Part shown: positions 17,401 to 20,400 of the stretch, one piece after another
Layout: each line of letters opens with the position of its first letter
Position numbering within the stretch: position 1 is the stretch's first letter
Assembly (NCBI RefSeq): GCF_024700885.2
Contig: NZ_CP117016.1
DNA length: 64,000 bases
DNA from: Escherichia coli
GTDB lineage: Bacteria > Pseudomonadota > Gammaproteobacteria > Enterobacterales > Enterobacteriaceae
Strand: one strand, 5' to 3'
Position numbers: made by a program

Positions 17401-20400
17401 CCGCCGGGGATACACAAAACACATGCTGCGTCTGCGGCGGGCCGGAGAGATAAACGGAGAACATGTCCCTGAAATTATTCTGCTCAACTCTCATGACGGT
17501 ACCTCCAGCTACCAGATGCTGCCGGGGTACTTCAGGTTCGTCTGCCAGAACGGCTGCGTCTGTGGTCAGTCTCTGGGGGAAGTACGTGTTCCGCACCGGG
17601 GAAATGTGGTGGACAGAGTCATTGAAGGGGCTTACGAGGTGGTGGGCGTGTTTGACCGGATAGAGGAGAAGCGTGATGCCATGCAGTCGCTGGTCCTGCC
17701 GCCACCGGCACGCCAGGCGCTGGCACAGGCGGCACTGACTTACCGTTATGGTGACGAACATCAGCCCGTCACCACCGCCGACATTCTGACGCCGCGACGC
17801 CGGGAGGATTACGGTAAGGACCTGTGGAGCGCATATCAGACCATCCAGGAGAATATGCTGAAAGGCGGGATTTCCGGTCGCAGTGCAAAAGGAAAACGTA
17901 TCCATACCCGGGCCATTCACAGCATTGATACCGACATTAAGCTCAATCGCGCATTGTGGGTGATGGCAGAAACGATGCTGGAGAGCCTGCGCTGATGCCG
18001 TTTCCCTGAGTGAGGGAATCATTCAGCTTTCGTTCCTGAAAAACACACATTTATTTGTTATTTAAGGAGTTATCTCATGAAAACCGTTTCTCAGAATACC
18101 CCCACAATTTATTCAGCTACAACACCAGAGAATAATCCGCCTCAGTTGGTTGCCAGCCTCGTCCCTGATGAACAGCGCATCAGCTTCTGGCCGCAGCATT
18201 TTGGCCTCATTCCACAGTGGGTGACCCTGGAGCCCCGTGTCTTCGGCTGGATGGACCGTCTGTGCGAAGACTACTGCGGTGGTATCTGGAATCTGTACAC
18301 CCTGAACAACGGCGGGGCATTTATGGCACCCGAACCGGATGACGATGATGACGAAACATGGGTACTGTTCAATGCCATGAACGGTAACCGCGCAGAAATG
18401 AGCCCGGAAGCCGCCGGTATTGCCGCCTGTCTGATGACGTACAGTCATCATGCCTGTCGTACGGAGAATTATGCCATGACGGTCCATTATTACCGGTTGC
18501 GGGATTACGCCCTGCAGCATCCGGAATGCAGCGCCATTATGCGCATCATCGACTGAATGGAGAGAAGCACAATGCAACAACTTTCCTTTCTGCCCGGAGA
18601 GATGACGCCCGGCGAGCGCAGCCTCATTCAACGGGCCCTGAAAACCCTGGACCGCCATCTTCATGAACCCGGCGTGGCCTTCACCTCCACCCGTGCGGCA
18701 CGGGAATGGCTGATTCTGAACATGGCGGGACTGGAGCGTGAAGAGTTCCGGGTGCTGTATCTGAATAACCAGAATCAGCTGATTGCCGGTGAAACCCTCT
18801 TCACCGGCACCATCAACCGCACGGAAGTCCATCCCCGGGAAGTGATTAAACGCGCCCTGTACCACAATGCCGCTGCCGTGGTACTGGCACACAATCACCC
18901 GTCCGGTGAAGTCACACCCAGTAAGGCAGACCGGCTTATCACCGAACGTCTGGTACAGGCACTGGGCCTGGTGGATATCCGGGTGCCGGACCATCTGATA
19001 GTCGGTGGCAACCAGGTTTTCTCCTTTGCCGAACATGGTCTGCTTTAACCCTTCACAACCACATCACACCTGTTTTCACTTTTATCTTCTGTCTTCAGAG
19101 GTATCCCATTATGAAAATTATCACCCGTGGTGAAGCCATGCGTATTCACCAACAACATCCGACATCCCGTCTTTTTCCGTTCTGTACCGGTAAATACCGC
19201 TGGCACGGCAGTGCTGAAGCGTATACCGGTCGTGAAGTGCAGGATATTCCCGGTGTGCTGGCCGTGTTTGCTGAACGCCGTAAGGACAGTTTTGGTCCGT
19301 ATGTCCGGCTGATGAGCGTCACCCTGAACTGAGTGGGAATTCTGATGAGCAGAATTATCGCCACTACCGGACCATTCTTAGCCGATTTTCTGTAAGGATT
19401 TTATCGTGTCAGACACACTCCCCGGGACAACACTTCCCGACGACAATCACGACCGCCCCTGGTGGGGGCTGCCCTGCACCGTGACGCCCTGTTTCGGGGC
19501 ACGTCTGGTGCAGGAGGGTAACCGGTTGCATTACCTTGCCGACCGCGCCGGTATCAGAGGCCTGTTCAGCGATGCAGATGCGTACCACCTGGACCAGGCC
19601 TTTCCGCTGCTGATGAAACAACTGGAACTCATGCTCACCAGCGGTGAACTGAATCCCCGCCATCAGCATACCGTCACGCTGTATGCAAAAGGGCTGACCT
19701 GCAAAGCCGATACCCTCAGCAGTTGTGGTTACGTTTATCTGGCTGTTTATCCGACGCCCGAAATGAAAAATTAACTCTCCAGAATAGCCTTCTGCTACGG
19801 CCTGGTGTTTTCACCACGCCACTTTTCCATTTTTATATCTGCATATCAGGAAAATCTTCAGTATGAAAACATTACCTGTATTACCCGGGCAGGCGGCCAG
19901 TTCTCGCCCGTCTCCTGTTGAAATCTGGCAGATACTGCTGTCCCGACTGCTGGACCAGCACTATGGCCTCACACTGAATGACACACCTTTTGCCGATGAA
20001 CGTGTGATTGAGCAGCATATTGAGGCAGGCATTTCACTGTGTGATGCGGTGAACTGATGCGCCGCGCGATAAATGCACTCTATCTTGTGCGATAAATGGC
20101 ATCCACGCGGCGTTTCATTATTTGAAAAAGAATTACATTTCAGGTTGCGTTATGACAGTCCCAACAGGGTGATAGCGGTAGATCGTTGACAGTCCAATAT
20201 CATAGATAATTGCCAGCCGCTTTCTGTCATACCCTTTCTGGAGCAATCTTGCGATCTGCTCATGCTGCTCCTTCGTCAGTTTCGGGCGACGTCCTCCAAC
20301 TCTTCCTTGTGCTCGCGCAGCAGCCAGTCCAGCCAGCGTGCGCTCAACTATCAGTTCACGCTCCATTTCTGCCAGTGCACCCATCATATGAAAAAAGAAC

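Follow-up and report, generated by a model that had tools for sequence, protein, structure and literature searches.

A BcepMu/B3-type transposable prophage interrupts the cbtA toxin gene of Escherichia coli MLI114 beside an intact cbeA antitoxin gene

The toxin and antitoxin of the CbtA/CbeA (YeeV/YeeU) module, known from the cryptic prophage CP4-44 of E. coli K-12, act on the same cellular partners. CbtA binds FtsZ and MreB (PMC5624674), and CbeA counteracts the toxin by bundling the FtsZ and MreB polymers (PMC3827094). An antitoxin of the CbeA family targets the cytoskeleton and not the toxin (PMC3827094), and antitoxin paralogues cross-neutralise paralogous toxins (PMC5371832). The F65S substitution in CbtA abolishes FtsZ binding and R15C abolishes MreB binding (PMC5624674). 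Toxicity persists in each single mutant, through MreB in the case of CbtA-F65S, and is lost when both substitutions are combined (PMC5624674).

Phage Mu is the classical 'mutator' phage, which inserts nearly at random into host genes to give null mutations and does not excise during lytic growth. Phages of the BcepMu/B3 group also propagate by replicative transposition and are packaged with host DNA at their ends. The type members, BcepMu (Burkholderia) and B3 (Pseudomonas), have a Tn552-related transposase with an adjacent target-binding ATPase, divergent early and late gene blocks and Mor/C, GemA and Gam genes, and genomes in the group span 36–39 kb. TG...CA ends are known for BcepMu-related prophages (PMC2628397). 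A target duplication of 6 bp is the footprint of the B3/Tn552-family transposases, that of Mu being 5 bp (PMC8705779).

Both systems meet in a 64,000-nucleotide stretch of E. coli DNA (NZ_CP117016.1, the window hereafter), which is 99.995–100% identical to the chromosome of E. coli MLI114 apart from one inverted segment. The window carries the same genes in the same neighbourhood as the K-12 module, in the order Ag43, IrmA, DUF905, DUF932, an antirestriction gene, a JAB/RadC-like gene, DUF987, cbeA, cbtA and yeeW, followed by DUF957, an EutP fragment, tmaR (yeeX), yeeA, sbmC, dacD and sbcB. These surroundings are those of a canonical CP4-44-type island and its chromosomal border and therefore identify the locus as the real cbtA rather than a paralogue. 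Unlike the K-12 module, the toxin gene of MLI114 is broken after codon 64 by a 37-kb prophage. The features at and around the break are:

19406..19774, plus strand: cbeA (yeeU), type IV antitoxin, a complete ORF of 122 aa (PGAP cbeA, WP_001285585.1)
19863..20054, plus strand: 5' fragment of cbtA (yeeV), codons 1–64 (tblastn 100% over CbtA residues 1–64)
20049..20054, no strand: left copy of the target-site duplication GTGAAC, cbtA codons 63–64 (6-bp geometry recurring in four other insertions)
20055..57174, no strand: transposable prophage of BcepMu/B3 type, 37,120 bp, termini TGATG...AATCA
57175..57180, no strand: right copy of the target-site duplication GTGAAC (junction sequences)
57181..57363, plus strand: 3' fragment of cbtA, codons 65–124 and the stop codon
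57360..57554, plus strand: yeeW (DUF5983), an ORF annotated yeeW by PGAP, its start overlapping the cbtA stop (ATGA)

We propose, with a probability of about 0.93, that a BcepMu/B3-type prophage transposed into the canonical cbtA of MLI114, so that the toxin is most probably non-functional and the disruption effectively permanent. A first-pass annotation of the window had already described a prophage that splits cbtA and leaves cbeA intact, and both observations are borne out. The cbeA gene lies 88 nt upstream of cbtA in the same orientation, and its product matches the YeeU structure (PDB 2H28) over residues 1–122 (E 5.4e-84). Joining 19863..20054 to 57181..57363 in silico, as that annotation suggested, yields an uninterrupted protein of 124 aa that covers the Pfam model PF06755 (CbtA_toxin) end to end (model positions 1–112 of 112, E 3.5e-58). 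Each half alone is shorter than full length, and moving the right-hand border to 57179 or 57180 loses the frame, while 57175 or 57178 doubles residues. A search of the NCBIfam models for CbtA, CbeA and YeeW returned no families.

The borders of the two pieces could be placed to the base. The upstream piece is an ORF of 64 codons (MKTLPVLPG...SLCDAVN), one more than first counted within the same, correct coordinates, and its stop codon TGA (20055..20057) consists of the first three bases of the insert. Downstream, an ORF of 62 codons (57175..57363; VNFLVEKYALV...KYPEAK) opens with GTG AAC, which repeats cbtA codons 63–64. The first-pass annotation took this whole ORF for the remainder of the gene; its 3' part is right, but the true remainder begins at 57181, the six bases before it (57175..57180) being the target-site duplication. 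A tblastn search of the window with the joined CbtA recovered only these two pieces (100% and 98.4% identity, E 7e-41 and 4e-39). Furthermore, an 800-nt empty site rebuilt in silico matched annotated cbeA-cbtA-yeeW loci of numerous E. coli genomes at 100% identity over its full length, and in 2777 records the best place reached at least 99% identity. The exact join and this identity to intact loci indicate that the two pieces are halves of a gene that was whole before the insertion. PGAP annotates them as separate pseudogenes, NL414_RS10485 ('missing C-terminus') and NL414_RS10205 ('missing N-terminus'); in the MLI114 RefSeq annotation the two are the product of one insertion event.

The inserted element has the following genes and regions:

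20133..20705, minus strand: Gin-like serine DNA invertase, 190 aa (phrog_125, E 1e-95; PGAP 'recombinase family protein', WP_000904922.1)
20769..22818, no strand: invertible tail-fibre region with alternative C-terminal cassettes (229-nt inverted repeats; ORFs)
22298..45469, minus strand: late region of a myovirus, with tail fibre, baseplate, capsid and lysis genes (ORFs, phrog_2 terminase, PGAP products)
28866..31556, minus strand: tape measure, in the late region
32953..34380, minus strand: sheath, in the late region
39442..40938, minus strand: portal, in the late region
40938..42533, minus strand: terminase-like gene (phrog_2 terminase)
47961..48317, minus strand: HTH repressor-like gene, divergent from the early operon (PGAP 'helix-turn-helix domain-containing protein')
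50224..51993, plus strand: DDE (rve) transposase, TnpA of B3/BcepMu type, 589 aa (phrog_310, E 4e-147)
52004..53170, plus strand: MuB-like transposition ATPase of the ExeA family, adjoining the transposase (phrog_296, E 1.5e-93; PGAP 'ExeA family protein')
53470..54000, plus strand: Gam host-nuclease inhibitor (PGAP product; 'Mu10, gam' in the PhiKM annotation)
56202..56651, plus strand: GemA, gp16 family (phrog_286; PGAP 'gp16 family'; 'protein GemA' in PhiKM)
56623..57012, plus strand: Mor/C-type late transcription activator (phrog_532, E 8e-46; PGAP 'Mor transcription activator family')

The transposase places the element within the BcepMu/B3 group. In Pfam it matches the generic rve core only, and it is 67.8% identical to BcepMu TnpA and 56.3% identical to B3 TnpA over at least 98% of its length. 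Among the best 40 of 69 tblastn matches to the transposase (E ≤ 1e-3), none was a phage Mu record. The element is also close to Escherichia phage PhiKM (PQ738613, genus Bcepmuvirus), with which it shares 100% identity in the transposase protein and 99.5% nucleotide identity across the 12.2-kb early region. Like BcepMu and B3, the element pairs a Tn552-related transposase with a target-binding ATPase, has TG...CA ends, divergent early and late blocks and Mor/C, GemA and Gam genes, is about 37 kb long, and makes a 6-bp duplication as B3 does. It differs from them in its E. coli host and in its Gin-type invertase, which accompanies an invertible tail-fibre segment of several cassettes. The MuB-like, Gam, GemA and Mor proteins, the invertase and invertible tail-fibre segment, the TG...CA ends and a short duplication of fixed length are also shared with phage Mu, although Mu duplicates 5 bp instead of 6 and the early genes here lie on the strand opposite the late genes. 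The helix-turn-helix gene at 47961..48317 has weak RstR/DicA-type matches, under the curated cut-offs, and its position suggests that it encodes the phage repressor.

We also compared this prophage with its relatives in E. coli. The insertion site differs from those of PhiKM and the related prophages, and two tail-region genes are altered in the cbtA-site copy. Relative to the copy in TUM13754, a small tail-region ORF has a 1-bp frameshift and the tail assembly chaperone gene has a CAG-to-TAG nonsense codon. These lesions suggest that the cbtA-site prophage may be partly decayed, and it may perhaps not make infectious particles.

A blastn comparison with the RefSeq record of MLI114 shows the segment 21208..22815 in the opposite orientation in the window. 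The 229-nt inverted repeats flank this segment, next to the invertase gene, and the tail-fibre switch evidently flipped between the two versions of the MLI114 sequence.

The phage is common in E. coli, and its presence in cbtA is particular to one strain. Its transposase gene occurs in 638 of 5426 complete E. coli genomes (~12%), in up to three copies per genome, a number that is compatible with transposition without proving it. The left cbtA junction was found in one of the 5426, the genome of E. coli MLI114 (NZ_CP117013.1), a human stool strain from Mali, where the junction search gave four matching places. The split could in principle have arisen as an assembly artefact or by rearrangement between two prophage copies, and the inversion inside the prophage indeed attests to some rearrangement here. 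That inversion, however, is limited to the invertase-flanked segment, the complete RefSeq chromosome contains both cbtA junctions, and the flanks join to the base once one GTGAAC is removed, giving the sequence of intact loci. An artefact or rearrangement is therefore very unlikely, and we return to an insertion by the phage itself.

The ends of the element support transposition as the mode of insertion. They read TGATGCGCC... and ...TCTAATCA, in the TG...CA form. Near one end, GCGATAAATG is present twice, 23 nt apart, and a related motif lies at equal distance from the other terminus:

20066..20098, plus strand: subterminal end motifs, with a function suggested by analogy with the Mu and BcepMu end repeats
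57154..57163, minus strand: related motif GAGATAAATG

By the same analogy, the GCGATAAATG and GAGATAAATG motifs are putative binding sites of the transposase. At the invertase-side end, the seven other prophage copies examined all share the same terminal 60 nt, and at the Mor-side end three of the seven share the terminal 60 or 40 nt. Among its best matches, this phage end is joined to nine or more distinct host genes; srlE, php, an esterase gene and a LysR gene are four of them. Four of the other insertions were delimited in full:

TUM13754: between yhfW and php, duplication GCGAGC
ST131 strain 2822: esterase gene, duplication GCTACG
MEI3O-23: LysR gene beside yeeZ, duplication ATTAAC
ETEC L4_E1441: lambdoid tail gene, duplication GGTGAC

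With GTGAAC at cbtA, exact 6-bp duplications thus flank five of five independent insertions at unrelated loci. The count leaves out ATCC 43896 and IPCEC31, the latter being a deleted remnant only. All four comparison insertions have the same terminal sequences as the cbtA-site copy, and the seventh base matches in none of them.

We considered cbtA as a constant att-like site for this phage. The presence of the same phage at many unrelated loci contradicts it.

The differing sites and their 6-bp duplications indicate that the event was a transposition and not an att-site integration. The 37-kb prophage of the first-pass annotation is thus confirmed as an element, but its type is that of a transposable phage, as its transposase, MuB-like ATPase and varied sites indicate, and not that of an integrase-type prophage. 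A conventional temperate prophage integrated site-specifically into cbtA as its attB, and able to restore the toxin gene by precise excision on induction, would account for the short direct repeat that flanks the element and for a recombinase gene near one end (20133..20705). Yet that recombinase, the only one in the element, is a Gin-type invertase of 190 aa adjoining the invertible tail-fibre segment, and the element encodes no tyrosine or large serine integrase. What it does encode is a DDE transposase with a MuB-like ATPase, and each of the four other delimited insertions of the phage has a different 6-bp duplication. Site-specific integration is thus hardly credible. In the transposition that we propose instead, the 37,120-bp phage would have entered cbtA of the CP4-44-like island at the boundary of codons 64 and 65. 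Cutting of the target in a 6-bp stagger by its DDE transposase would have left a copy of GTGAAC at either border.

Read in the cbtA frame, the phage terminus opens with TGA. The 5' piece accordingly codes for CbtA residues 1–64 and no more, and translation would terminate there at a phage-supplied codon. We take the binding roles of CbtA and CbeA from K-12, which should hold in MLI114 given the same protein family and the 100% nucleotide identity to annotated loci. CbtA(1–64) keeps R15, the determinant of MreB binding, and lacks F65, the determinant of FtsZ binding, together with all that follows. An AlphaFold model of CbtA, built from a 34-sequence alignment of the family, predicts a single domain in a five-helix bundle (pLDDT 85, pTM 0.71). 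The break falls inside predicted helix 3 (residues 59–70), and half of this helix would be lost with helices 4 and 5. Conservation within the family is also highest in the segment that holds the site, and N64 and V67 are two of the nine positions that hardly vary in the same alignment. A structure search for a solved CbtA gave no match (best E 0.12). On this model CbtA(1–64), which has neither F65 nor the second half of the predicted helical domain, is most probably non-functional.

The insertion could be real and the toxin still partly active, if CbtA(1–64) kept a function such as MreB binding. The 5' fragment retains its own promoter, together with the original ribosome-binding site and start codon. 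The R15 that it keeps is the determinant of MreB binding, and the F65S single mutant remains toxic via MreB (PMC5624674). Against this, the break is in helix 3 of what is predicted to be one compact domain, helices 4 and 5 are gone, and the segment affected is the most conserved of the family. Half-domains are usually unstable. Some C-terminal truncations of YeeV reportedly still elongated cells, according to the abstract of Tan et al. from 2011. Overall, we consider partial activity unlikely. A more specific variant is less likely still: that the locus is a natural separation-of-function allele, in which CbtA(1–64) with R15 and without F65 sits beside an orphan CbeA possibly kept to cross-neutralise the paralogues YkfI and YpjF. 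If it were true, the locus would retain a physiological activity rather than being dead. Loss of toxin function remains the reading that we prefer. An antitoxin that targets the cytoskeleton and whose paralogues cross-neutralise would be harmless on its own, and possibly useful. The cbeA gene itself is untouched, and its expression from its own promoter should continue.

The insertion may also affect the gene downstream. The yeeW start codon overlaps the cbtA stop codon, which suggests that yeeW expression is reduced by the insertion. The effect would probably be polar or due to translational coupling, as yeeW probably loses both its normal transcription and its coupling to cbtA translation. 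The Mor gene is the final gene ahead of the phage end and is oriented toward the 3' fragment of cbtA. By inspection, no ribosome-binding site is evident before the GTG of this fragment. Promoter and terminator scans at both junctions gave weak consensus matches only, not above those in shuffled sequence.

The first-pass annotation also held that the toxin is inactivated unless the prophage excises precisely. Inactivation is a strong inference from the loss of F65 and of half the predicted domain. The condition on excision is true as a matter of logic and biologically remote, since the element is of a transposable kind that does not excise. In the account of the life cycle in PMC5977238, transposable phages transpose replicatively, the original copy stays in place and excision is not a step. 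We searched the literature for precise excision among transposable phages and found no relevant report. For cbtA to be restored, the two 6-bp repeats would have to recombine, a rare event, and reversion is not expected. Because transposable phages replicate by transposition and do not excise, the disruption of cbtA would be effectively permanent.

The insertion is an ordinary, strain-specific mutation whose parts are all of known kinds, and the RefSeq annotation already implies the event. It carries little weight beyond that annotation and leaves the understanding of toxin-antitoxin systems and transposable phages unchanged. As a clean natural case of insertional mutagenesis by a transposable phage of the BcepMu/B3 type, it provides base-exact ends and a 6-bp duplication that could be used to delimit such prophages automatically. 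For E. coli, it would make MLI114 a natural cbtA-null, cbeA-positive background.

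The BcepMu/B3-type transposable prophage inserted in cbtA carries an invertible tail-fibre segment adjoined by its own invertase gene:

20133..20705, invertase gene beside the tail-fibre region
20769..22818, multi-cassette invertible tail-fibre region

Three alternative C-terminal cassettes for the tail fibre lie within 20769..22818, where 229-nt inverted repeats at 20769-20997 and 21208-21436 are matched at 22590-22818. Sequence comparison of the window with this strain's RefSeq record placed 21208..22815 in opposite orientations, and the tail-fibre switch has therefore flipped. 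A single indel, positioned within the first 20 kb, also separates the window from the RefSeq record. The RefSeq annotation gives agn43 (10479..13597), the Ag43 autotransporter gene of the CP4-44-type island, as frameshifted.

The tail region of the prophage also differs from the copy of the same phage type in E. coli TUM13754:

31714..32049 and 32147..32429, two tail-region ORFs that differ from the TUM13754 copy

Against the intact TUM13754 genes, codon 91 of the tail assembly chaperone gene is changed from CAG to the stop codon TAG (Q91*), and a small ORF adjoining the tail tube gene has a 1-bp frameshift. Furthermore, this prophage encodes a tape measure protein of 896 aa, versus 983 aa in the other copies. 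Virion assembly may be defective in this prophage. Alternatively, sequencing errors may lie behind these tail-gene differences.

Other E. coli strains host the same phage type at different genes. In the unrelated strain MEI3O-23 (NZ_CM149569.1, around 1938667 and 1976643), the phage is inserted in a LysR-family gene beside yeeZ, a site within the chromosomal neighbourhood of the cbtA locus. The occurrence of both insertions in one neighbourhood may reflect coincidence or a regional preference. ETEC L4_E1441 (NZ_LR883012.1) has two nested prophages, with the phage lodged inside an NlpC/P60 tail gene that belongs to a lambdoid prophage. In IPCEC31 (NZ_AP026783.1), a deleted phage remnant of ~13.6 kb with a truncated transposase gene joins srlE to srlA.

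The toxin family of the interrupted gene (CbtA, PF06755) is small, with 231 matches (E <= 0.001) in a representative library of 1.8 billion proteins. Among the matches listed (P0001-P0150), many of the cluster representatives are either fragmentary or longer proteins in which the match spans only a portion of the sequence. This suggests that the CbtA-family genes, which are repeated island genes, are often truncated or mis-assembled.
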